39,348 nucleotides of DNA from a virus (UHGV-0146801), one strand, 5' to 3'. Positions 1,830 through 30,469 are shown, numbered from the stretch's first letter. Numbers and translations: made by a program. Notes: generated by a model not told the origin, from the letters alone.

Positions 1830-3347
1830 TTAATCAAATGATGTGGCCAGTTCAATTAATTCAATGTAATTATGTAAGGCATAAAAAGATGTATTCAGTC
1901 CATTCTCTATAAGGGCTCCTTGCAAATACTTTATAGCTGTATCACCATCAATAGGGCCTTGTTGAGATTTAATCATTAGTGAATTTTGCCCATTGTTTTT
2001 TATACTTGATTTAAGTATTTTTATATTATTGATAAAATACAATGCAACATCTAAGTAATTTATTAATGTTAAACTTATTTTGGGCTCGATCTGTGAGATG
2101 AATAATCTACTGTTCGCCGTTGTATAGATATAATTGACACCTATTCTTTGCTGATTTGTATCAAGATTTAATTCAAGGATGGCTTGAGAAACACCTTTTA
2201 AATTGGAGCTTTGCTTTATCGAATCAGTGAAACGTTGTGCTGCATTTCTTCGACCAATTAGTCCATCTATAATTTGACGATCCTTATCATATATAATCAT
2301 TAGCGAAATTATAAAAATATAATCTACTTTCTTTTTGACTAAATCAGATTTAAGAATGTCTATTAACCTTTCAGTATTTCGGATTGAGTCTCTTAGATTT
2401 AACCCAAATGCTTCAAATACGTTGGAAATATTTATTGAAAAGTCTTCTAATGTTGCGGTTAGTGGGTATGTTTTTGATGTGATATTTTCAAACTCGGTAC
2501 CAATATAATCACCAACAACACCATTAATTAAATCTTTAAGTTCAGGTTGTTTTAAAGTAAATCTTCTATGAAAAAAACGGCCTAAATAGTCATTTGCGGA
2601 AAAATCATTACCGTAAACATTCTTGATTGAATGTTGTAATTGATCTGTGTCAGTAGCAATAATAAAGACAAAATTTTTAATATCGAATATATGTTTAACA
2701 ATCTCTAAAAGAGAAATTGCATAATCTGGCCTGCATCTGTCTAATTCATCTATAAAGATAAATATAGGACATGAAAAACTATTTTCATATGCCAACCTAG
2801 ACCATAACGTAAGTTCTTTTTTTAATACCTTAATGCTCTTCAGTTTTTCCTGGTGTTCCTTCAGCATTATTAATGAGGCTTCTTTGGCTATATCACCTAC
2901 GTTATCTACTCCTGCATAAGTCTTGATTAGGCCAGATATGATTTCAGGTAGAACACCTTTTGTAAAGCGTCCGATAGCATGGCCGCTTTGTATCAATCGA
3001 GCATCAAGTTTTCCTGCATATGTTTGCAATTGTTGTGACAAAGAAGAAAAAAGGGTTAAAAATGCATCATCAGAAAAGTCTTGCTTCCAGGCATCAATGT
3101 AAACGCATGGGTGTGCATCTTTTATTGAGTTATAAAATCTCTTTATGAAAAAACTTTTACCAGCTCCCCATTCTGCATTAAGGTTGATTACCGTGTTGTT
3201 CTTTTGCCCCTTTTCCTTAAGATAAAAATATAGATATTCTGCATAGTGTCTCCGATTAAGTTTGTCTTTGGAGAGAATTTCCTCTTCGTCGTCTAATATA
3301 AAGGTAGTTTCTTCATCCCAGTTCCAATTACAATCACCACATTTCAC
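1830..3347 (-). CDS. KAP-family P-loop NTPase (cargo, candidate defence gene)
   Basis: 505 aa; Walker A with KAP-type tryptophan NAEWGAGKSFF and Walker B IFIFIDELDRCRP (DELDRC motif); AT-rich coding sequence. Confidence 0.8.
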   Translation of the reverse strand: MKCGDCNWNWDEETTFILDDEEEILSKDKLNRRHYAEYLYFYLKEKGQKNNTVINLNAEWGAGKSFFIKRFYNSIKDAHPCVYIDAWKQDFSDDAFLTLFSSLSQQLQTYAGKLDARLIQSGHAIGRFTKGVLPEIISGLIKTYAGVDNVGDIAKEASLIMLKEHQEKLKSIKVLKKELTLWSRLAYENSFSCPIFIFIDELDRCRPDYAISLLEIVKHIFDIKNFVFIIATDTDQLQHSIKNVYGNDFSANDYLGRFFHRRFTLKQPELKDLINGVVGDYIGTEFENITSKTYPLTATLEDFSINISNVFEAFGLNLRDSIRNTERLIDILKSDLVKKKVDYIFIISLMIIYDKDRQIIDGLIGRRNAAQRFTDSIKQSSNLKGVSQAILELNLDTNQQRIGVNYIYTTANSRLFISQIEPKISLTLINYLDVALYFINNIKILKSSIKNNGQNSLMIKSQQGPIDGDTAIKYLQGALIENGLNTSFYALHNYIELIELATSFD

Positions 3348-3372
3348 TATGAAGTCTCCATGAAAAATTTAC

Positions 3373-4296
3373 TTAATGTAAACAACTTATAATAACTTTT
3401 GCAATAAACTCAATGTCTGTAAGCGAACATTCAAAAGAGTGATTTTTGGATGAAATATAAACTCGTCCTTTAGGTAGTCGAGTTATCATTCTAAATGAAT
3501 TCTCTCCATCAATATTTACTAGCCACTTACCATCATGTACATCTTTAAAACCCATTTCACATATTAATTCAGAGTCTTCGGTAGATACTACGAATGCATT
3601 TTTTAAATTGGAAGGTAGAAAACATGGGTCAAATAAATATGAGCCATCATTTATTAACTTGCCATTGATTAATACTTTTTTCACTAATGTTAAAGTATCT
3701 TTATTTTTTGCGTTTTTCATTTCTCCTGTACCAAATGAAATCCATTCAATAGAATGGCCCGTTTCTATTGCACACTGCAAAACCCAGTCTGCAGGAAAAA
3801 TGTCACGCATGTATCGTGTGGCTAATGTGCTTTTTGAAATACCTAGGTGATCAGCTAATGCTTGGCGCGTTTTGTAACCGTAAGCCTCGACAATTCGTTC
3901 TATTGTTGCCTTACCCCCTCGGTTAAAATTCATGAGTTTTTCATTATCGAACTTTATAGTGGGAATGTATACTTCATTGCAAAGGCCATTAACGGCATGT
4001 TTTTCAGAATATTGCTCTGATGAAGGAGCAGTATCTGAACCAAGAACTAACCATTCAATTGATGCTCCTGTTTCTATGGAACATATAACAACCCAATCTG
4101 CAGGAAAGGTATTACGTGCATATCTGTTGGCCATAGTACTTTGGGAAATACCTAGATGATTACATAATGCCTGTCGTGACTTGAAGCCATAGGCTAGGAG
4201 TATACGCTCAATAACTTTTTGCCCTCCACGATTCTGCATGACTATTGCTTTCAGATCGTTTTTGATATGGCTAAATTTTAATTTTTGAGTTGACAT
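3373..4296 (-). CDS. CI-repressor paralog with two tandem N-terminal HTH domains and a CI-like C-terminal domain
   Basis: 307 aa; two copies of the I(E)R(I/M)(L/V)xAYG(F/Y)K(S/T)RQAL..HLGISxST(M/L)A.RY.R..FPADWV block, and a C-terminus that aligns with the adjacent CI (LPKGRV vs LPGGRI, FLPSNLKNAFVV vs FLPSTLKNPFVI). Confidence 0.75.
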   Translation of the reverse strand: MSTQKLKFSHIKNDLKAIVMQNRGGQKVIERILLAYGFKSRQALCNHLGISQSTMANRYARNTFPADWVVICSIETGASIEWLVLGSDTAPSSEQYSEKHAVNGLCNEVYIPTIKFDNEKLMNFNRGGKATIERIVEAYGYKTRQALADHLGISKSTLATRYMRDIFPADWVLQCAIETGHSIEWISFGTGEMKNAKNKDTLTLVKKVLINGKLINDGSYLFDPCFLPSNLKNAFVVSTEDSELICEMGFKDVHDGKWLVNIDGENSFRMITRLPKGRVYISSKNHSFECSLTDIEFIAKVIISCLH

Positions 4297-4346
4297 ATTT
4301 TTTACACCACAACAAATGCTTTACCAAGCATAAAAACATTCCTATA

Positions 4347-4922
4347 TTACTCAAAGTACTTAACTGTTATGGTTATAATTTTTCCAATAATTTCGATTTC
4401 TTCTTTTTTACATTCGAAAGCCCTATTTCCACCTTCAACTAAGATTCTTCCACCAGGTAAACGAGTGATATCGCGGATTGTTACTTCGGCATCAATACTT
4501 ATTACCCATTTGCCGTCACGAATATCGTTAAACTCTTTATCGCAAATAAAAACGGAATTGTTATCGGTGATTACAAACGGATTTTTGAGCGTAGATGGTA
4601 GAAATTCTTTATCGAAAATATAAAAACCATCTTCCTGCAAGGTTCCATCAGATAATACATATTTAACGACTTCCATAGTATTTGTATTACCTGAAGTTTG
4701 CTTTGAACCATGTCCGGTCGTGAGCCAGTTAAGCGAGGCGCCCGTTTCAAGTGCGCACTGGATTACCCATTCAGCAGGGAATGAGTCACGCATATAGCGT
4801 GTGGCGAGAGTACTTTTAGAGATTCCTAAGTGATCGCACAACGCCTGTCGAGTCTTGAAGCCATATGCTTCTACCATGCGCTCTATAGCGCCTCGTCCGC
4901 CTTTCTCCAAATTCATGGTCAC
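4347..4922 (-). CDS. cI: Immunity repressor CI, phage 186 type
   Basis: 191 aa; N-terminal HTH (AYGFKTRQALCDHLGISKSTLATRY) and C-terminal oligomerisation-like domain; divergent from apl/cII as in 186. Confidence 0.85.
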   Translation of the reverse strand: MTMNLEKGGRGAIERMVEAYGFKTRQALCDHLGISKSTLATRYMRDSFPAEWVIQCALETGASLNWLTTGHGSKQTSGNTNTMEVVKYVLSDGTLQEDGFYIFDKEFLPSTLKNPFVITDNNSVFICDKEFNDIRDGKWVISIDAEVTIRDITRLPGGRILVEGGNRAFECKKEEIEIIGKIITITVKYFE

Positions 4923-4969: not shown

Positions 4970-5041
4970 TATGATGTTCACAAAATACAAACGATCCGTA
5001 TTCGTCCTGATTAATCAACATTAAACGAGGAATGTTGCATC

Positions 5042-5263
5042 ATGAAACATAACATTTCAATCACTCTTACCACGCCTCATGTGACTATTGAACGTTATAG
5101 CGAGCTGACAGGGCTATCCATCGATACTATCAATGACATGTTGGCTGATGGACGTCTTATCCGTCACCGTCTGCGGAAAGATAAAAAACGCGAAAAAGTG
5201 ATGATCAACATAGCAGCCATGACCGTTGATGCGCTTTCAGAATGCAATCTAAACCTTAATTAG
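5042..5263 (+). CDS. apl: Apl/Cox-like excisionase-repressor
   Basis: 73 aa small basic protein, first gene of the rightward operon facing cI; position as in phage 186. Confidence 0.6.
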
Positions 5264-5289
5264 TTCGATTCTGAAATACATCAGAGGCA

Positions 5290-5805
5290 TTGACCATGTT
5301 TGATTACCAAGTTTCCAAACATCCACATTTTGATGAAGCCTGTCGTGCATTCGCATTGCGCCACAACCTGGTGCAACTGGCAGAACGTGCTGGCATGAAT
5401 GTGCAGATTCTGCGGAACAAGCTGAACCCAGCTCAACCTCATTTATTAACCGCACCAGAAATCTGGCTGCTTACCGATCTGACTGAAGATTCAACGCTGA
5501 TAGATGGTTTTCTGGCACAGATTCACTGCCTGCCATGTGTACCGATTAATGAGGTAGCAAAAGAGAAACTGCCGCATTACGTCATGAGTGCAACCGCAGA
5601 GATCGGGCGTGTTGCTGCAGGTGCGGTATCTGGCGATGTAAAAACCAGTGCAGGTCGTCGTGATGCTATCAGCAGCATTAACTCTGTAACACGACTGATG
5701 GCGCTGGCTGCTGTTTCATTGCAGGCCCGTTTACAGGCTAACCCTGCGATGGTGAGTGCAGTTGATACCGTGACTGGCCTCGGTGCTTCATTCGGTTTGC
5801 TGTGA
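5290..5805 (+). CDS. cII: CII-like lysogeny establishment regulator (186 type)
   Basis: 171 aa; position immediately after apl; alpha-helical N-terminus, size matches 186 CII. Confidence 0.6.
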
Positions 5806-5812
5806 GGTACTT

Positions 5813-6109
5813 GTGCTGAAGAAAGAACCATCATTTGCATCGCTGCTGGTAAAACAAAGCCCGGCAATGCATTACGGTCACGGCTGGATCATGGGTGAGG
5901 ATGGTAAACGCTGGCATCCATGTCATTCACAAGATGAATTGCTGTCTGAATTGACCACGAGGAAACGGAGAAAGTCAAAATGTATGCAGCGGAAAGTGAA
6001 GTGGTTTATCAGTTTCGTTACAGAGGGGAGAGTTATTCAGTACCTGAAGATGATTTGCTCTGTTGTTATCCGTCGTTGTCGGGCGATGGCAGTTACTTTT
6101 TCACGCTAA
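5813..6109 (+). CDS. Possible Fil-like (filamentation) protein; GTG start
   Basis: GAGG RBS 5 nt upstream of GTG 5813; N-terminal part (KEPSFASLLVKQSPAMHYGHGWI...KRWHPC) looks protein-like, but the 3' part overlaps the next ORF and looks low quality. Confidence 0.3.
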   Translation: MLKKEPSFASLLVKQSPAMHYGHGWIMGEDGKRWHPCHSQDELLSELTTRKRRKSKCMQRKVKWFISFVTEGRVIQYLKMICSVVIRRCRAMAVTFSR

Positions 6110-12291: not shown

Positions 12292-13521
12292 ATGCTAGTT
12301 GCATTCAGTTTAGAAAATTACAAGAGCTTTCGCGAAAGACAGGTTCTTAGTTTTGCTTCCTCAATTGGGGATGAGCATCCTGAACATATCGTGACATTAG
12401 CGAATGGTTTAAGAGTAAACAGATTTGCCGCATTAATAGGCGGAAATGGTGTTGGTAAAACACAATTAATAAATGCTATTACTGAATTTGCAAATTCAAT
12501 TCATAGTGACACATTACACAAATTGCATATGCCTTTCCTTCTAAATAAGGAATGTCGTAACAAACCTACTTCCTATGAAGCGATACTGATTGATGAAGAG
12601 CAAAAAAACTTCGTCCGTTATGGTGTGTCAGTTTTAAATGAAGTTATTGTAGATGAGTATTTATACATTAGACCGATAAGAAAAAATGCAAGGGAACAAT
12701 GTATTTTTATTCGCAATGAAAATGGGTTGGTTTTCAAAAAGCCCGACTTAAAAAAATACGAGTCGTTGATTAATCCTGTCTTAAGAGAAAGTGGAGCTGT
12801 TGTAACTTTTGCAAAATCTTTAGAAATTGATGCTCTTGTTGAAACCCAACGCTGGGCATTAAAACAATTGCCTTATTACTCTGAAAAATTCAAAAATCCA
12901 AGTCTTAAATTTGTTGAAGGACAACTTAAGCGCCAGTTATCAGGTGAGGAAGGAAATGAAAAATTAAATGAGAGTGGTCAAAGAATTTTAAATACCTATA
13001 ATGAAATGGTTATTCAGTCGCCGCTGCATATAGATAAAGTTGAATTTGTAAGATTTGGCGAAGATAATGAGTATAAATTTGTTTATCTCATAAAAAATGA
13101 TGATGGTGATTTTACTAGAATAGGCCCTGACCGTAGGGATGAATTTTTTTCCCAAGGCACACTAAATGTTTTAACATTTTTAGCAATATTGATTTGGGCT
13201 AGTGAATATGATTTTACACTTTATGTGGATGAAATAGATTCATCTATTCACTATTCTTTGGCAAGTGCACTAATCAAAAAAATATTTGATAAAACCTGCC
13301 GTAAAAATGGTGTGCAGTTTATTATGTCTACACATAATATTCCTTTATTAGATGATGTGTTTAGAAGAGATGAGCTTAATATTATAGTCAAGGATTCATC
13401 TAAAGCGTCGATAATAACTAATGCTACGGTATTTTCTGTAAGGAAAGATGCTAAAGTGTCTGCCAAATATTTACGTGGCGAATTTGGATTAGTTCCAGCT
13501 TTTCTTGATATAAAAAACTAA
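12292..13521 (+). CDS. ABC/OLD-type P-loop ATPase (AAA_15/21-like)
   Basis: 409 aa; Walker A GGNGVGKT, signature-like FSQGT, Walker B/D-loop LYVDEIDSSIH, H-loop MSTHN; AT-rich. Confidence 0.8.
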   Translation: MLVAFSLENYKSFRERQVLSFASSIGDEHPEHIVTLANGLRVNRFAALIGGNGVGKTQLINAITEFANSIHSDTLHKLHMPFLLNKECRNKPTSYEAILIDEEQKNFVRYGVSVLNEVIVDEYLYIRPIRKNAREQCIFIRNENGLVFKKPDLKKYESLINPVLRESGAVVTFAKSLEIDALVETQRWALKQLPYYSEKFKNPSLKFVEGQLKRQLSGEEGNEKLNESGQRILNTYNEMVIQSPLHIDKVEFVRFGEDNEYKFVYLIKNDDGDFTRIGPDRRDEFFSQGTLNVLTFLAILIWASEYDFTLYVDEIDSSIHYSLASALIKKIFDKTCRKNGVQFIMSTHNIPLLDDVFRRDELNIIVKDSSKASIITNATVFSVRKDAKVSAKYLRGEFGLVPAFLDIKN

Positions 13522-13534
13522 GCGTGAGAAAAAC

Positions 13535-14614
13535 ATGACTAGCTTTGCTTATGATGGTGATATTTTGACACCTAATAATTTAGAAATTACATCCTTCGCC
13601 ACATTGAAATCAAAAATAAGAGAGCGAAGAGTATGTGTTTTTCTCGGAGCAGGATTTTCTAAAGCCTGGGATGACAAATACCCATTGAGTAATGAAGTCT
13701 TTTCCATCTCTGAAGACGAAGCATTAGAAAATATTGATGAGTATGGTTTTTTTTCTTTGTTCGACAGTCTTAAATTTAAATGGGCGGATGCTAATGCAGG
13801 TTTAGATGACAAAGCTAATGTTTTCAAGAGTTTTAAATATGCATTGGATGTTTATAAGCGATATCCAAGTTTATTGCCGTCGTATCTTGATAGGCATACG
13901 CTTGAGTTGTTTGAGGCACAAGTAAAACTATATGTAAAAAATAAGTTTGCAAAAAAAATACCGGCAAATGATTTAAAGCTAAGTCAAACTGCAAAATTTG
14001 GGCAGAATAAAAGGAATATTATTTCTTTCTTTAAGAGTTTACAGGAAGCTTCAGCACTGGATGTAGTCACAACAAACTACGATATAGTTATTGATAAAGT
14101 GCTACATCATGCATTCCCTGAACGTTCAGTTAATCGGGGTTTTCCTGTGCATCATAATAATATATTAGTGTGTCCTCAGCCTAAAGGTATAGGTTTGTAT
14201 AAGCTTAATGGAGGATTTGAGGTTGTTGCTGCAAGGGATGGTTTTAAAATAGATTATGATTCATTATTAAACGCAAAAGTTGTTCCAAATATTATCTTGC
14301 CTTCAAATGAACAAGACTATGGGGATAAATACTTTAAGTCAGCTTTTGTGAAATCCTCTACCCAGTTGAGACAAGCAGATCTGTTGATCTTTATAGGTTA
14401 TTCTTTCCCAAAGGAAGACTTTATTATTAATTTTCTTTTGAAGACTTTTCTGGATGGCGATAGTACTGAAAAAGAGACTGTTATTATTGGGCGAAATAAA
14501 TCTAGTGCTATTGAGATACACCAGCGTGCGTGTGAAGTTTTTAAAGAACTAAATGATAAATCTGCACTGTATTATTTCGGTGGTAGTTTTTCTGATTTAT
14601 GTAAACAATGTTAG
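13535..14614 (+). CDS. SIR2-like (DHS-like NAD-binding fold) protein, candidate NADase effector
   Basis: 359 aa; Rossmann motif VCVFLGAGFS, TTNYD motif (VVTTNYDIVID), C-terminal LLIFIGYSFPKED; 13 bp downstream of the ATPase. Confidence 0.75.
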   Translation: MTSFAYDGDILTPNNLEITSFATLKSKIRERRVCVFLGAGFSKAWDDKYPLSNEVFSISEDEALENIDEYGFFSLFDSLKFKWADANAGLDDKANVFKSFKYALDVYKRYPSLLPSYLDRHTLELFEAQVKLYVKNKFAKKIPANDLKLSQTAKFGQNKRNIISFFKSLQEASALDVVTTNYDIVIDKVLHHAFPERSVNRGFPVHHNNILVCPQPKGIGLYKLNGGFEVVAARDGFKIDYDSLLNAKVVPNIILPSNEQDYGDKYFKSAFVKSSTQLRQADLLIFIGYSFPKEDFIINFLLKTFLDGDSTEKETVIIGRNKSSAIEIHQRACEVFKELNDKSALYYFGGSFSDLCKQC

Positions 14615-24907: not shown

Positions 24908-25505
24908 TCTGCTGCCACCGGGTTCAACACCACTGGAGCGCCGACTGGCGCAAACCTGCAGCGGGATTTCTGATCTGCAGGTGCCGCTTCGTGACTTGTG
25001 GAGTCCGGCAACCTGTCCGGTCAGTTTCCTGCCTTATCTCGCCTGGGCGTTCTCTGTGGATCGCTGGGACGAGGGCTGGACAGAAAGCGTCAAACGCCAG
25101 GTGGTGAAGGATGCTTTTTATATTCATCAGCATAAAGGGACCACCAGTGCCGTGCGGCGGGTGGTGGAGCCGTTCGGCTTTCTGATCCGCATTATTGAGT
25201 GGTGGCAGACCGGAGAGGCACCAGGCACGTTTCGCCTGGATATCGGCGTGCAGGACCAGGGCATCACTGAAGATACCTATCTGGAACTTGAGCGACTGAT
25301 AAGCGATGCCAAACCATGTAGCCGCCACATGATCGGCATGTCCATCAATCTGCAGACCAGCGGCCCGCATTGGGTGGGAGCCGCCAGCTATCTTGGCGAA
25401 GAAATCACGATCTATCCGTATATCAACGAAACGATTATTTCCGGTGGCACCGCGCATGAAGGCGGGGCGGTCCATGTTATTGACACAATGAGAGTGAATC
25501 CATGA
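24900..25505 (+). CDS. I: Baseplate/tail protein, P2 gpI-like
   Basis: 201 aa; position. Confidence 0.8.
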   Translation: MNSLLPPGSTPLERRLAQTCSGISDLQVPLRDLWSPATCPVSFLPYLAWAFSVDRWDEGWTESVKRQVVKDAFYIHQHKGTTSAVRRVVEPFGFLIRIIEWWQTGEAPGTFRLDIGVQDQGITEDTYLELERLISDAKPCSRHMIGMSINLQTSGPHWVGAASYLGEEITIYPYINETIISGGTAHEGGAVHVIDTMRVNP

Positions 25506-27046
25506 GCACAAAATTTTATACCCTGCTGACGGATATTGGCGCGGCGAAACTTGCCAGCGCCGCCGCGCTCGGTGTGCCTTTAAAAATTACCCATATGGCG
25601 GTAGGCGATGGCGGCGGAACATTGCCAACGCCGGACGCAGAGCAGACAGCATTAGTAAATGAGAAACGCCGGGCTGCGCTGAATATGCTGTACATCGACC
25701 CGCAGAACAGCAGCCAGATTATTGCCGAACAGGTGATCCCTGAAAACGAGGGCGGTTGGTGGATACGTGAAGTGGGCTTGTTTGATGAGTCCGGGGCATT
25801 GATTGCCGTGGGCAACTGCCCGGAAAGCTATAAGCCGCAACTGGCTGAAGGTAGCGGGCGCACTCAGACCGTGCGCATGGTGCTGATTACCAGCAGCACG
25901 GACAATATCACCCTGAAAATCGACCCTGCCGTCGTGCTGGCAACCCGCAAGTATGTGGATGACAAGGTACTGGAGCTGAAGGTGTTCGTGGATGATAAGA
26001 TGGCAAAACATCATGCCGCACCGGACCCGCATTCACAGTATGCACCCAAAGAAAGCCCAACATTGACCGGAACACCCAAAGCGCCAACGCCAGCGGAGGG
26101 GAATAACACCACGCAGATTGCGACCACCGCGTTTGTTCAGGCGGCACTGATGGCCCTTATTAATGGTGCGCCAGCCACACTGGATACGCTGAAAGAAATT
26201 GCCGCTGCCATTAATAATGACCCGAAATTCAGTACCACCATTAACAATGCGCTGGCACTGAAAGCGCCGCTGTTAAGTCCGGCACTCACCGGAACGCCAA
26301 CAGCCCCCACTGCCGCACAGTCGGTTAACAATACACAGATTGCCACCACGGCTTTTGTGAAATCGGCAATTGCGGCAATGGTGGGGTCTGCACCTGCTGC
26401 ACTGGATACACTGAATGAACTGGCTGCGGCGCTGGGGAATGACCCGAACTTTGCCACGACAATGCTTAATGCGCTGGCAGGTAAACAACCGCTGGACAAT
26501 ACGCTGACTAATTTGAGTGGAAAGGATGTAGCTGGTCTTCTCGCATACCTTGGTTTGGGAGAAGGCTCTGCATTACCTGTTGGTGTGCCTGTTCCATGGC
26601 CTTCAGCCACACCGCCAACAGGCTGGCTGAAATGCAACGGTGCGGCATTTTCTGCTGAAGAATACCCGGAACTGGCAAAGGCTTACCCGACAAATAAATT
26701 GCCTGATTTACGTGGTGAGTTCATTCGTGGCTGGGATGATGAACGTGGTGTGGATAGTGGGCGAACTCTGCTTTCAGCGCAAGGAGATGCTATTCGAAAC
26801 ATTACTGGCGGTTTTGGTCAGTTGCGCGTAAACAGCGAAATTAATGCAATTGTCGATGTTCAAAGTGTGAGTGGGGCTTTTTACGGAGGTACCTCAGTCC
26901 GGAATAACATCAATGTATCTATGACATACGCTAATGACCGAAAAATCCGACAAGATGTTCACTTCTCGGCGGCAAATGTTGTTCCAACAGCAAATGAAAA
27001 TCGTCCACGTAACATCGCCTTTAATTATATTGTGAGGGCCGCATGA
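25502..27046 (+). CDS. H: Tail fibre protein, P2 gpH-like, with a switchable C-terminal segment
   Basis: 514 aa; repeated PTLTGTPKAPTPA/ALTGTPTAPTAA fibre motifs; C-terminal part lies inside the candidate invertible segment. Confidence 0.85.
   Translation: MSTKFYTLLTDIGAAKLASAAALGVPLKITHMAVGDGGGTLPTPDAEQTALVNEKRRAALNMLYIDPQNSSQIIAEQVIPENEGGWWIREVGLFDESGALIAVGNCPESYKPQLAEGSGRTQTVRMVLITSSTDNITLKIDPAVVLATRKYVDDKVLELKVFVDDKMAKHHAAPDPHSQYAPKESPTLTGTPKAPTPAEGNNTTQIATTAFVQAALMALINGAPATLDTLKEIAAAINNDPKFSTTINNALALKAPLLSPALTGTPTAPTAAQSVNNTQIATTAFVKSAIAAMVGSAPAALDTLNELAAALGNDPNFATTMLNALAGKQPLDNTLTNLSGKDVAGLLAYLGLGEGSALPVGVPVPWPSATPPTGWLKCNGAAFSAEEYPELAKAYPTNKLPDLRGEFIRGWDDERGVDSGRTLLSAQGDAIRNITGGFGQLRVNSEINAIVDVQSVSGAFYGGTSVRNNINVSMTYANDRKIRQDVHFSAANVVPTANENRPRNIAFNYIVRAA
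26550..26564. repeat. Left arm of 15-bp inverted repeat TTGGTTTGGGAGAAG (candidate invertase crossover site inside H)
   Basis: Perfect reverse complement at 28506..28520; encodes GLGE in the same reading frame in both copies. Confidence 0.5.
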
Positions 27047-27648
27047 TGAATAAAGCCGTATTGAATAGTGAACTCATTGCCATAAAAGCGGGAGACATTA
27101 TCATTTATAATTATGATGGTGAAACGCGGGAATATATTTCTACATCAACTGAATATCTCGCTGTCGGCGTCGGTATCCCGGCATGTTCCTGTTTGGATGC
27201 ACCAGGTACACATAAAGCTGGTTATGCAATCTGTCGCTCTGTAGATTTAAATTCATGGGAATATGTGCCAGACCATCGCGGTGAAGTTGTCTATAGTACC
27301 GAAACGGGAGATACCAAAGAAATCGCAGTTCCGGGTGATTATCCTGAAAATACAACCACTATCGCCCCGTTAACGCCATACGATGAATGGGATGGTGAGA
27401 AATGGGTGACCGATACTGAAGCACAGCATAGCGCCGCAGTAGGCGCGGCAGAAGCACAGCGTCAGTCACTGATTGATACTGCAATGGCTTCCATTAGTCT
27501 GATTCAACTGAAATTGCAGGCCGGGCGGAAGCTGACGCAGACAGAAAACACCCGACTTAACGCTGTGCTGGATTACATTGACGCGGTGACGGCAACAGAT
27601 ACCAGCACCGCGCCGGACGTCATCTGGCCTGAACTGCCGGAGGCGTAG
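27043..27648 (+). CDS. G: Tail fibre assembly chaperone, P2 gpG-like
   Basis: 201 aa; conserved C-terminal LDYIDAVTATDTSTAPDVIWPELP. Confidence 0.8.
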   Translation: MMNKAVLNSELIAIKAGDIIIYNYDGETREYISTSTEYLAVGVGIPACSCLDAPGTHKAGYAICRSVDLNSWEYVPDHRGEVVYSTETGDTKEIAVPGDYPENTTTIAPLTPYDEWDGEKWVTDTEAQHSAAVGAAEAQRQSLIDTAMASISLIQLKLQAGRKLTQTENTRLNAVLDYIDAVTATDTSTAPDVIWPELPEA

Positions 27649-28063
27649 GCCATTCAATATCTGGCGCACCGGAAGTATCAACCAGTTCCAGTGCGTCCAG
27701 ATAATCCAGCCATAAATTATATTGTTCCAGCTCGTCACCTTTCAGACGACCAATAGCAGCTTTGCCAGGCCACTGATGGGTATTGATGTAGGTATTGACT
27801 TCTGAAACCAAAGATATTTTTTTCATTTCAGCCGTCAACACCTCATCCTCTTTTGAAGGTGGTGGGGAATTAATCCATACTGGCCGTCCTGAACTGTCAG
27901 CGCCAATTTCTTTCCCTTCTGGATGCAGACCAAGAAATTGCTCATATGTTTCTCTGGTAATTTCAATAACATCATCAGGAAGCGTTCCCGCACCCTCATA
28001 TTCTGGAAACAATTCTTGCAGATAAAAACTTTTACTTCCGGGTGAAAAGAATACTGAGTTCAT
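27620..28063 (-). CDS. Alternative tail fibre assembly chaperone (G')
   Basis: 147 aa on the opposite strand with the same Tfa C-terminal motif (LDYLDALELVDTSGAPDIEWPTPP). Confidence 0.75.
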   Translation of the reverse strand: MNSVFFSPGSKSFYLQELFPEYEGAGTLPDDVIEITRETYEQFLGLHPEGKEIGADSSGRPVWINSPPPSKEDEVLTAEMKKISLVSEVNTYINTHQWPGKAAIGRLKGDELEQYNLWLDYLDALELVDTSGAPDIEWPTPPAVQAR

Positions 28064-28065
28064 TA

Positions 28066-28560
28066 TTACCGTCCAATGATTAACGCTGAGACGCTGGTAT
28101 CTGAAGGAAAGGCTGCATTCAGTGGTTTGTCGACTTTGAACACAATCGTATTATTCCCCCTGACAGCGGCAAAAGAACAAACCGCAGTCGCGTATGAACC
28201 TGTAATATTACTGGATACACCACCATAAGCTGTTGTTGATACCAGAGGGATAACGCCCAGCACCTTATTAGGAAATACAAAGGGTAATGTGGCTGTGGCA
28301 ATATAAGACTTATTAGAACCTGTGATGGCATAAGCATTATCAGTCATTCCATTCATCGCCACTGGGCCGCTTATACTTACAGTAACCATCTGAATGATTA
28401 GCCCGTCAGGTTGACGAATCACAAAATTTCCATTGCCACCAGTAACCGTCCAGAAAGACATATCAGGGATTTGGTTTTCCCCGTTGCCCACATTCCGTTT
28501 TGCCGCTTCTCCCAAACCAACGTTTAAGAAAATGCAGATGTAACGGCTAACTGGCATCAT
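28066..28560 (-). CDS. Alternative tail fibre C-terminal (receptor-binding) segment (Hv')
   Basis: 164 aa ORF in reverse orientation sharing the in-frame GLGE crossover region with H. Confidence 0.65.
   Translation of the reverse strand: MMPVSRYICIFLNVGLGEAAKRNVGNGENQIPDMSFWTVTGGNGNFVIRQPDGLIIQMVTVSISGPVAMNGMTDNAYAITGSNKSYIATATLPFVFPNKVLGVIPLVSTTAYGGVSSNITGSYATAVCSFAAVRGNNTIVFKVDKPLNAAFPSDTSVSALIIGR
28506..28520. repeat. Right arm of 15-bp inverted repeat (CTTCTCCCAAACCAA on + strand)
   Basis: Reverse complement of 26550..26564. Confidence 0.5.
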
Positions 28561-28581
28561 CTCCGGTTTTTATTCAGGGGG

Positions 28582-29154
28582 ATGATCATGCTTATTGGCT
28601 ATGTACGTGTGTCAACAAATGACCAGAACACCGATTTGCAACGTAATGCACTGAACTGCGCGGGATGTGAGCGGATTTTTGAGGATAAAATCAGTGGCAC
28701 TAAGTCCGACAGACCGGGGCTGAAAAAACTGCTCAGGACACTATCGGCAGGAGACACGCTGGTTGTCTGGAAGCTGGACAGGTTGGGGCGCAGTATGCGG
28801 CATCTTGTTACGCTGATAGAAGAGTTACGCCAGCGTGGCGTGAATTTCCGAAGCCTGACTGACAGTATTGATACCAGCACCCCAATGGGCCGTTTCTTTT
28901 TTCATGTCATGGGGGCTCTGGCTGAAATGGAACGCGAACTGATAGTTGAACGTACCAGGGCGGGGCTGGCTGCAGCTCGTGTTAAAGGCAGAGTAGGTGG
29001 ACGCCGTCCTAAGTTGACCAGCGAACAGTGGGCACAGATTGGGCGTTTACTCGAGGCCGGAGAATCAAGACAGCGTATTGCACTGATTTTTGATGTAGGC
29101 GTTTCTACCATTTATAGAAAATTTCCGGCCAATAAGAGCATTGAATCCCCCTGA
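28582..29154 (+). CDS. Serine recombinase / DNA invertase (Hin/Gin/Cin/Pin family)
   Basis: N-terminal MLIGYVRVSTNDQNTDLQ with catalytic-serine context and C-terminal HTH; start may be ATG 28588. Confidence 0.9.
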   Translation: MIMLIGYVRVSTNDQNTDLQRNALNCAGCERIFEDKISGTKSDRPGLKKLLRTLSAGDTLVVWKLDRLGRSMRHLVTLIEELRQRGVNFRSLTDSIDTSTPMGRFFFHVMGALAEMERELIVERTRAGLAAARVKGRVGGRRPKLTSEQWAQIGRLLEAGESRQRIALIFDVGVSTIYRKFPANKSIESP

Positions 29155-29202
29155 ATCAGCATTATTTTGATTATCCCTGCAAGTAGACAAATACCGTCAT
29201 TT

Positions 29203-29220
29203 TGTGTGAATAACGGTACA
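29203..29220. promoter_or_regulatory. Late-promoter dyad TGT-N12-ACA upstream of FI
   Basis: TGTgtgaataacggtACA about 75 bp upstream of the FI start. Confidence 0.5.
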
Positions 29221-29296
29221 ACTGCGCTTAGCTGTTTGTCAGGCACAATCACTTCAACATAGGGCGAAGCCTAATCCAATCAGGAGGTTCGCCACT

Positions 29297-30469
29297 ATGG
29301 CTCAGGATTACCACCACGGGGTGCGCGTTGTTGAAGTCAACGAAGGCACCCGATCCATTACCACGGTGAGCACCGCCATCGTGGGTATGGTCTGCACGGG
29401 CGATGATGCCGATGCAAAAATGTTTCCTCTTAATAAACCCGTGCTGATCACTGATGTGCTGACTGCCAGCGGTAAAGCGGGTGAGTCCGGTACTCTGGCC
29501 CGTTCGCTGGATGCCATCGCTGACCAGGCAAAACCCGTGACCGTTGTTGTGCGTGTGCCGCAGGGTGAAACGGAAGACGAAACCACGACCAATATCATCG
29601 GCGCTGTGACTGCTGAAGGTAAAAAAACAGGCATGAAAGCCCTGCTATCTGCCCAGTCACAGCTCGGCGTTAAACCGCGCATTCTCGGCGTGCCAGGTCA
29701 CGATAACAAAGCCGTTGCGACTGAGTTGCTGAGCGTGGCGCAAAGCCTGCGTGGGTTTGCTTACCTGTCAGCGTATGGCTGCAAGACGGTACAGGAGGCG
29801 ATCACTTACCGTGAAAACTTCAGCCAGCGCGAAGGGATGCTGATCTGGCCTGACTTTACTGGCTGGGACACGGTGCTGAATGCCGAAGCAACGGCATATG
29901 CCACCGCCCGTGCGCTTGGTCTGCGCGCCAAAATTGACGAGCAGACCGGATGGCACAAAAGCCTGTCCAACGTGGGCGTGAACGGTGTCACCGGAATTTC
30001 TGCTGATGTGTTCTGGGATCTGCAGGACCCGGCAACAGATGCGGGACTGCTGAACCAGAACGACGTCACCACGCTTGTGCGTAAAGACGGTTTCCGCTTC
30101 TGGGGTTCCCGCTGCCTGAGTGATGACCCGCTCTTTGCCTTCGAAAACTACACCCGCACGGCGCAGGTGCTGATGGACACGATGGCAGAAGCACACATGT
30201 GGGCGGTGGATAAACCGCTTAACCCGTCGCTGGCCCGCGACATTATCGAAGGTATCCGCGCCAAAATGCGCAACCTGGTCAGTCAGGGCTATCTCATTGG
30301 TGGTGATTGCTGGCTGGACGAGTCGGTGAACGACAAAGATACGCTTAAAGCCGGAAAACTCACCATCGACTACGACTACACGCCAGTGCCGCCACTTGAA
30401 AACCTGATGCTGCGTCAGCGCATCACCGATCAGTACCTGATGAATTTTGCCAGCCAGGTCAGCGCGTAA
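29297..30469 (+). CDS. FI: Tail sheath protein, P2 gpFI-like
   Basis: 390 aa; position and size. Confidence 0.9.

Follow-up and report, generated by a model that had tools for sequence, protein, structure and literature searches.

A two-state, Pin/Gin-type inversion switch as the probable function of the tail-fibre locus of an Escherichia coli P2-like prophage

The question raised by UHGV-0146801, a viral stretch of 39,348 nucleotides that was analysed as a whole (hereafter the window, from whose first letter all coordinates are counted), is whether an inverted repeat shared by two tail-fibre segments and a neighbouring gene for a DNA invertase form a switch that exchanges the tip of the fibre, and which known system such a switch resembles. 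An earlier note on this DNA had described a Mu-G-like invertible segment, in which a second fibre C-terminus (Hv') and a second fibre-assembly gene (G') lie in reverse orientation downstream of the fibre gene H and its chaperone gene G, followed by the invertase gene. It is, in our judgment, very probable that the locus is a two-state, site-specific inversion switch of the Pin/Gin type in the tail-fibre operon of an Escherichia coli P2-like prophage. The features on which the argument draws are collected in Table 1.

Table 1. Features of the tail-fibre locus (aa, amino acids; ORF, open reading frame)
Feature	Position	Strand	Remarks
H, tail-fibre gene, 514 aa	25502-27046	+	Pfam Phage_tail_fib and Collar
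Constant part of H, aa 1-350 including core TT	25502-26549	+	Outside the invertible segment
Left 26-bp recombination site	26538-26563	+	TTCTCGCATACC TT GGTTTGGGAGAA; core TT at 26550-26551
Hv, variable C-terminus in use, aa 351-514, collar-type tip	26550-27046	+	Pfam Collar
G, chaperone paired with Hv, tfaE-like	27043-27648	+	Pfam Caudo_TAP, E 1e-30; phrog_105
G', alternative chaperone, silent in the window orientation	27620-28063	-	Caudo_TAP, E 3.5e-27; phrog_188
Hv', alternative fibre C-terminus	28066-28520 (usable); 28066-28560 (ORF)	-	Weak Pfam Gp53-like_C; phrog_12714, phrog_1396
Right 26-bp recombination site	28507-28532	+ strand reading	TTCTCCCAAACC AA CGTTTAAGAAAA; core AA at 28519-28520
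Din-family serine DNA invertase, 188 aa	28588-29154 (ATG at 28582 also possible)	+	Resolvase, HTH_7; phrog_125
Candidate recombinational enhancer	28609-28672		Two G-N13-C 15-mers, 28609-28623 and 28658-28672, within the 5' end of the invertase gene

The repeat, TTGGTTTGGGAGAAG, is present in exactly two copies, at 26550-26564 (+) in H and at 28506-28520 (-) in Hv', which bears out the perfect 15-bp inverted repeat of the earlier note, and no further copy with up to two mismatches was found in the window. In 100 dinucleotide-preserving shuffles, matches averaged 0.10 and never reached two; a repeat of this kind is not expected by chance. In a repeat search the pair widens to arms of 27 nt (26538-26564 and 28506-28532) with 81% complementarity, and these arms hold two 26-bp dyads, each built of a 12-bp half-site, a 2-bp core and another 12-bp half-site, with the 15-mer composed of the core TT, the inner half-site and one extra base. 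Breakpoints fall within the 15-bp repeat in the relatives described below, but the functional site is the 26-bp dyad. Read from the outer half first, the two cores match (TT), and the sites are inverted relative to each other, so arranged that crossover would take place at TT 26550-26551 and AA 28519-28520. Two inverted 26-bp sites with imperfect half-sites and matching cores are the layout of the Din family; set against sites taken from the e14, Mu and P1 records, the dyads fit the pattern of e14 pix, Mu gix and P1 cix, and the half-site pattern (T/C)TNTCNNAAACC is common to the sites of the window, Mu gix and P1 cix. A third site, which would make the locus a multi-state shufflon like the three-repeat locus of enteropathogenic E. 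coli (EPEC) considered below, was sought in the window with the half-site and an AAACC-NN-GGTTT pattern and was rejected, as only two sites beat chance. There is no third site in the window and the switch therefore has two states.

The repeats are placed where an exchange of fibre tips requires them to be. Both encode G-L-G-E, each in the reading frame of its own gene, as had been claimed, and ORFs, Pfam and PHROGs agree on the presence of the reversed G' and Hv' downstream of H and G. The constant part of H carries the Phage_tail_fib N-terminal domain (Pfam, E 4e-65), while Hv matches the tail collar fibre family phrog_523 (E 4e-75) and belongs to a PHROG family unrelated to those of Hv' (phrog_12714 and phrog_1396). 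The chaperones, of which G is annotated as tfaE in relatives, fall into different tail-fibre-assembly protein families with a C-terminal module in common according to PHROGs. Hv' lacks a start of its own and joins H in frame once inverted: reversal of 26550-28520 in silico gave an uninterrupted H' of 500 amino acids, with G' following two bases on, and left the constant part the same in the native and flipped proteins, as expected from the in-frame swap by an inversion of about 2 kb that had been put forward. The DNA so flipped measures 1,971 bp between the outer ends of the 15-mers, or 1,967 bp from core to core. As in a Mu G-type cassette, the segment leaves out the constant 5' part of the fibre gene and encloses two opposed 3' parts, each followed by its chaperone, and the fibre ORF is uninterrupted in either orientation (514 amino acids native, 500 flipped). 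Both forms of the fibre are annotated as intact coding sequences in natural genomes, and the 500-amino-acid protein is annotated as complete in two flipped genomes (L003 and L004). Between the two halves of the cassette, at 27620-27648, G (+) and G' (-) converge with a 29-bp overlap, one stretch of DNA encoding both C-termini on opposite strands.

Natural genomes hold the locus in both of its predicted states. The native 3.8-kb region and its in-silico flipped version were searched against 5,426 complete E. coli genomes, a match being counted when at least 80% of the 3.8-kb query was covered; the native orientation was present in 31 genomes and the flipped one in 24, and the top match was 97.8% identical over 100% of the query in one piece for native and flipped versions alike. 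Near-identical prophages are found in opposite orientations. ECO2947 (native) and NCTC11121 (flipped) differ, after reversal of the block between the 15-mers, at 3 of 9,799 positions, none of them inside the inverted block, and 1504D004 and 1604D011, which come from the same farm and have equal chromosome lengths and coordinates, have identical flanks (4,063 and 3,795 bp) around an inverted block of 1,905 bp that starts directly after the 15-mer. A third case is found within a single record, NZ_OU342919.1, a 'complete' RefSeq chromosome with an untrimmed end overlap of about 19 kb in which one locus was assembled twice (L009, 1-19001; L010, 4883792-4902782). The two copies are collinear save for an inverted block of 1,974 bp limited by the 15-mers; the locus was assembled in both orientations and therefore both were present in one sequenced culture. 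The natural breakpoints mapped all fall within the 15-bp repeat.

Two side observations concern these genomes. The inverted block of 1504D004 and 1604D011 (L002 and L003, locus 5012-5897) has 16 mismatches whereas the 7.8-kb flanks have none, and all 16 lie in about 900 bp spanning the 3' end of G, G' and Hv'; they could be due to polishing against another prophage copy or to gene conversion. The prophage of NZ_OU342919.1 is defective, its baseplate gene J being fused to a terminase fragment (J-terminase deletion).

Inversion of a closely similar locus has been published. Phase-variable inversions of two P2-like prophages of EPEC E2348/69, of a Mu-like prophage and of e14 were revealed by whole-genome sequencing, and polymerase chain reaction confirmed those of e14 and of a P2-like locus with three repeats and four variants (Goldberg et al. 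2014, PMC4272514). The other, simple P2-like locus is given in Table S1 of that work as NC_011601.1 2977580-2979467, with the inverted repeat printed as TTGTTTGGGAGAAG, and in clonal cultures it was in the forward orientation in 93% by sequencing (PMC4272514). The published coordinates coincide with the core dinucleotides of sites bearing the same 15-mer as the window, and inversion itself is thus on record both for homologous copies with the same sites and in the published EPEC experiment. The likeness extends to the position of the segment, between the fibre gene and FI, to the gene order Hv-G-G'-Hv'(gp53-like)-invertase-FI, to a right 26-bp site identical to that of the window and to a G that is 89% identical, although identity falls to 77% for the invertase and to 57% for G'. 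The three-repeat locus has the same enzyme family and purpose but four variants, whereas the window has two sites and two states.

The simple EPEC element differs from the window in a further respect: it breaks off within 2 nt of the left core, and its outer half-site there is unrelated. At this point (L011 3069-3094; NC_011601.1 ~2977568-2977593) a C-terminal fragment of an integrase abuts TT GGTTTGGGAGAA, and the outer half-site reads TTCTTCTTTCCC. This suggests that the truncation arose by an invertase-mediated rearrangement at a secondary site. The locus is reported to invert despite the unrelated left outer half-site.

It could still be argued that the 15-bp repeat is incidental, with inversion proceeding by RecA-dependent homologous recombination or through other sites while the recombinase serves another target. 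Din-family invertases act in trans on each other's sites, and the window's enzyme could likewise invert e14 or Mu-like segments sharing a cell with it. However, the mapped natural breakpoints and the published EPEC coordinates are all inside the 15-mer, 15 bp is too short for efficient RecA recombination, and the structure of the sites is exactly that of pix, cix and gix, with a third site absent from the window. We give this explanation a negligible chance, and return to the site-specific switch and to the enzyme that would drive it.

The invertase gene adjoins the segment, outside the right site, and its assignment to the Hin/Gin family in the earlier note is well founded. The product has Pfam matches to Resolvase (E 1.6e-52) and HTH_7 (E 5.8e-16), its top match in the PDB is Gin (3UJ3, E 1e-92), and its identity reaches 84.8% with PinE, 78.0% with P1 Cin and 74.5% with Mu Gin. 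The motif GYVRVSTNDQ, with the catalytic serine, lines up with Ser9 of Gin, and the overall build, a serine recombinase of about 190 amino acids with an N-terminal catalytic serine and a C-terminal helix-turn-helix, is that of a Din-family enzyme. In Hin, residues Q151, R154 and L155 and the basic helix-B residues 47, 48 and 51 are invertase-specific contacts to Fis and the enhancer (McLean et al. 2013, PMC3798978). Q-I-G-R-L of the window's enzyme sits opposite Q151-I-S-R154-L155 in an alignment to Hin's DNA-binding domain (1HCR), and LKKLLR lies opposite LKRALK in our own alignment to Hin numbering; the Fis-contact residues of Din-family invertases thus appear to be in place.

Within the 5' end of the invertase gene, two 15-mers may form a recombinational enhancer. 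They correspond to nucleotides 22-36 and 71-85 of the gene and keep their register in pinE and gin, while cin keeps the distal one only, also in register. By our arithmetic about 96 bp separate the core of the right site from the centre of the proximal 15-mer, as in Mu and e14; in hin the enhancer is about 100 bp from the site, with 47 bp between the centres of the Fis sites (PMC3798978). Between the right site and the start of the gene, at 28549-28576 (+), there is a weak terminator-like hairpin followed by TTTTTATT, found as a consensus match only. As it lies outside the segment, it could stop read-through from the late operon into the invertase gene in either orientation.

Taken together with what is known of Hin and Gin, these elements suggest how the switch would operate. 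By homology, dimers of the invertase would bind the two inverted sites, 26538-26563 and 28507-28532. In an invertasome bound to Fis and the enhancer, staggered cuts of 2 bp at TT/AA would be followed by a rotation of subunits that turns one half by 180 degrees and by religation, leaving about 1.97 kb inverted; both the dependence on Fis and the enhancer and the exact chemistry of cleavage are proposed here by analogy. Systems of the Din family depend on host Fis and on negative supercoiling. In the window orientation the late V-W-J-I-H-G operon would yield H(1-350) joined to Hv (514 amino acids, collar-type tip) together with chaperone G, and in the inverted orientation H(1-350) joined to Hv' (500 amino acids, unrelated tip) together with chaperone G'. 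A population of lysogens would release two kinds of virion, presumably with different receptors.

Some observations weigh against this account or parts of it. In its outer half the left site reads ATACC, against AAACC in e14, Mu and P1, an objection that is weakened because the identical left 26-mer also flanks the flipped segments in both the same-farm pair (L002/L003) and the twice-assembled chromosome (L009/L010). The centres of the two 15-mers are 49 bp apart in our register instead of 48, versus 47 bp reported for hin, and the pair is offered as a candidate enhancer only. No sigma-70-like promoter was found upstream of the invertase gene in a consensus scan of 26400-29400, in which the counts of promoter and terminator matches were no higher than in shuffles; low expression of the invertase is expected for the family, yet the missing promoter match is no evidence for it. 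Both orientations are known from relatives, not from the window's own copy, and the switching of host range is suggested by analogy with Mu and P1.

Some of these same points would suit a frozen relic, that is, a locus with the architecture of an inversion system whose copy in the window is locked, making only the H-Hv/G fibre, for the reason that the invertase is unexpressed or inactive or that the left site is too degenerate. To the lack of a promoter-like site upstream of the invertase and the departure of the left outer half-site from AAACC may be added that the window shows the locus in one orientation. Nevertheless, the invertase ORF is intact, with its catalytic serine and all conserved motifs, and each of the two 26-bp sites recurs unchanged around segments that are found in both orientations elsewhere. 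Moreover, Hv' and G' are intact ORFs, which is unexpected after a long silence. We regard a relic as very unlikely, and the copy in the window as presumably active.

With regard to its kind, the switch is Mu-G-like in the logic of its cassette and in its sites, but the nearest known system appears from sequence comparison to be the P segment of e14 with Pin (pinE-stfE-tfaE-tfaP-stfP, E. coli K-12), not the G segment of Mu with Gin. The two share the constant fibre part, the Sv-U pair, the inverted U'-Sv' pair and the invertase, which in e14 is likewise transcribed away from the segment. The sites pixL and pixR differ from those of the window by two and one mismatches, respectively, in the outer half, the inner half-site and core being identical. 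DNA identity to stfE is 95% over 26547-26739, the 5' part of Hv, and identity to tfaE plus the 3' end of tfaP is 88% over 26996-27787, with the same 29-bp convergent overlap in tfaP/tfaE as in G/G'. The inversion of e14 is experimentally documented (PMC4272514). Unlike the apparently complete P2-like prophage of the window, e14 is a defective lambdoid element; in addition, the distal tip of Hv (26740-26995) has no e14 counterpart, and neither the N-terminal part of G' nor Hv' resembles tfaP or stfP in DNA. Only part of the cassette matches e14, and the cassette is therefore a mosaic.

Mu and P1 offer more distant parallels. The G segment of Mu also joins Sc to Sv or Sv', with U or U', between 26-bp sites, and agrees in the position and direction of the invertase gene and in the spacing of about 96 bp between core and candidate proximal Fis site. 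In contrast, that segment is about 3 kb long, its core is TC/GA instead of TT/AA, its half-sites differ, its fibre tips are unrelated in DNA (no Mu match was found), and Mu is of another phage family. In the C segment of P1, the cix beside cin reads CAATCCTAAACC TT GGTTTAAGAGAA, shares the TT core and has a comparable half-site, but it overlaps the 3' end of cin, so that the invertase gene faces the segment. The inverted repeats of P1 are also much longer than those of the window.

The mosaic structure raises the possibility that Din-type sites serve as portable junctions, at which invertase-mediated recombination between co-resident prophages would move half-cassettes, each a tip with its chaperone, between unrelated phage families, and would truncate prophages. 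TT GGTTTGGGAGAA is identical in e14, a Mu-like prophage and two P2-like prophages, and what is shared with e14 is only one half of the cassette: the 5' part of Hv, G and the 3' end of G'. The EPEC remnant that ends within 2 nt of the core would be an example of such an event. We hold this idea tentatively, as possible but rather doubtful. That these cassettes are mosaics is reportedly an old idea, due to Sandmeier and colleagues in the 1990s, and the novelty would lie in direct evidence of the invertase as the agent.

The element that houses the switch has the gene order of P2-like phages (Peduoviridae), int ... Q P O N M L ... V W J I H G ... FI FII E T U D ogr, an assignment made from the ORF map, the annotation of near-identical relatives and the reference map of P2. 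V, W, J and I lie upstream of the locus, FI, FII, E, T, U, D and ogr downstream, and int far to the left, while ogr stands beside the host genes grxA-ybjM-ybjL, which places the prophage in the E. coli chromosome. The earlier note was right that P2 itself has no such switch: the reference phage carries fun(Z), with no invertase, between G and FI. A DNA invertase together with inversion of adjacent genes is nevertheless often found in the Z/fun hotspot of P2 (bioRxiv 10.1101/2024.10.15.618418).

A last alternative accepts the switch as described but holds that it was selected for the host, through phase-variable expression of surface or tailocin-like particles encoded by the prophage, or of cargo, and not for the host range of the phage. 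Inversion does go on in defective remnants that are unable to make phage, such as the EPEC element truncated at its site and the prophage of NZ_OU342919.1 with its J-terminase deletion, and Goldberg et al. (PMC4272514) raised a speculation of this sort. The prophage of the window, however, looks complete, with int, capsid, tail and lysis genes and ogr; a neutral residual activity explains the persistence of inversion in remnants equally well; and no host-benefit gene was found inside the segment with Pfam and PHROGs. A role selected for the host seems to us extremely unlikely.

Elsewhere in the window, two islands of low G+C content were observed. One, at 1830-4922 (-), adjoins int and has a G+C fraction of 0.31-0.39; for its ORF of 505 amino acids (1830-3347) PADLOC gave a match to the candidate defence family PDC-S20 (E 7e-78) and a weaker one to PifA, while the ORFs beside it at 3373-4296 and 4347-4922 had no PADLOC match. 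The other, at 12292-14614 (+) upstream of the portal gene, comprises two ORFs, one matching an AbiLi-like ATPase (E 2e-51) and the other SIR2, weakly (E 2e-9), and is probably, to judge from these matches, an anti-phage system of two genes in a cargo hotspot of P2.

The two-state switch of the fibre operon is of a kind already known, widespread and annotated, common and documented in P2-like prophages. It opens no new question, in that the same switch has already been seen flipping at the same site in E. coli (PMC4272514). Its recognition matters for annotation, as the promoterless Hv' is routinely called a 'hypothetical protein', and for the quality of assemblies, in which mixed orientations give rise to artefacts, the duplicated end of NZ_OU342919.1 being one. 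It is also relevant to the prediction of host range and to the engineering of P2-like phages or tailocins. For the phage itself, the switch would be a bet-hedging device, by which one lysogen may give rise to virions with two receptor-binding tips.

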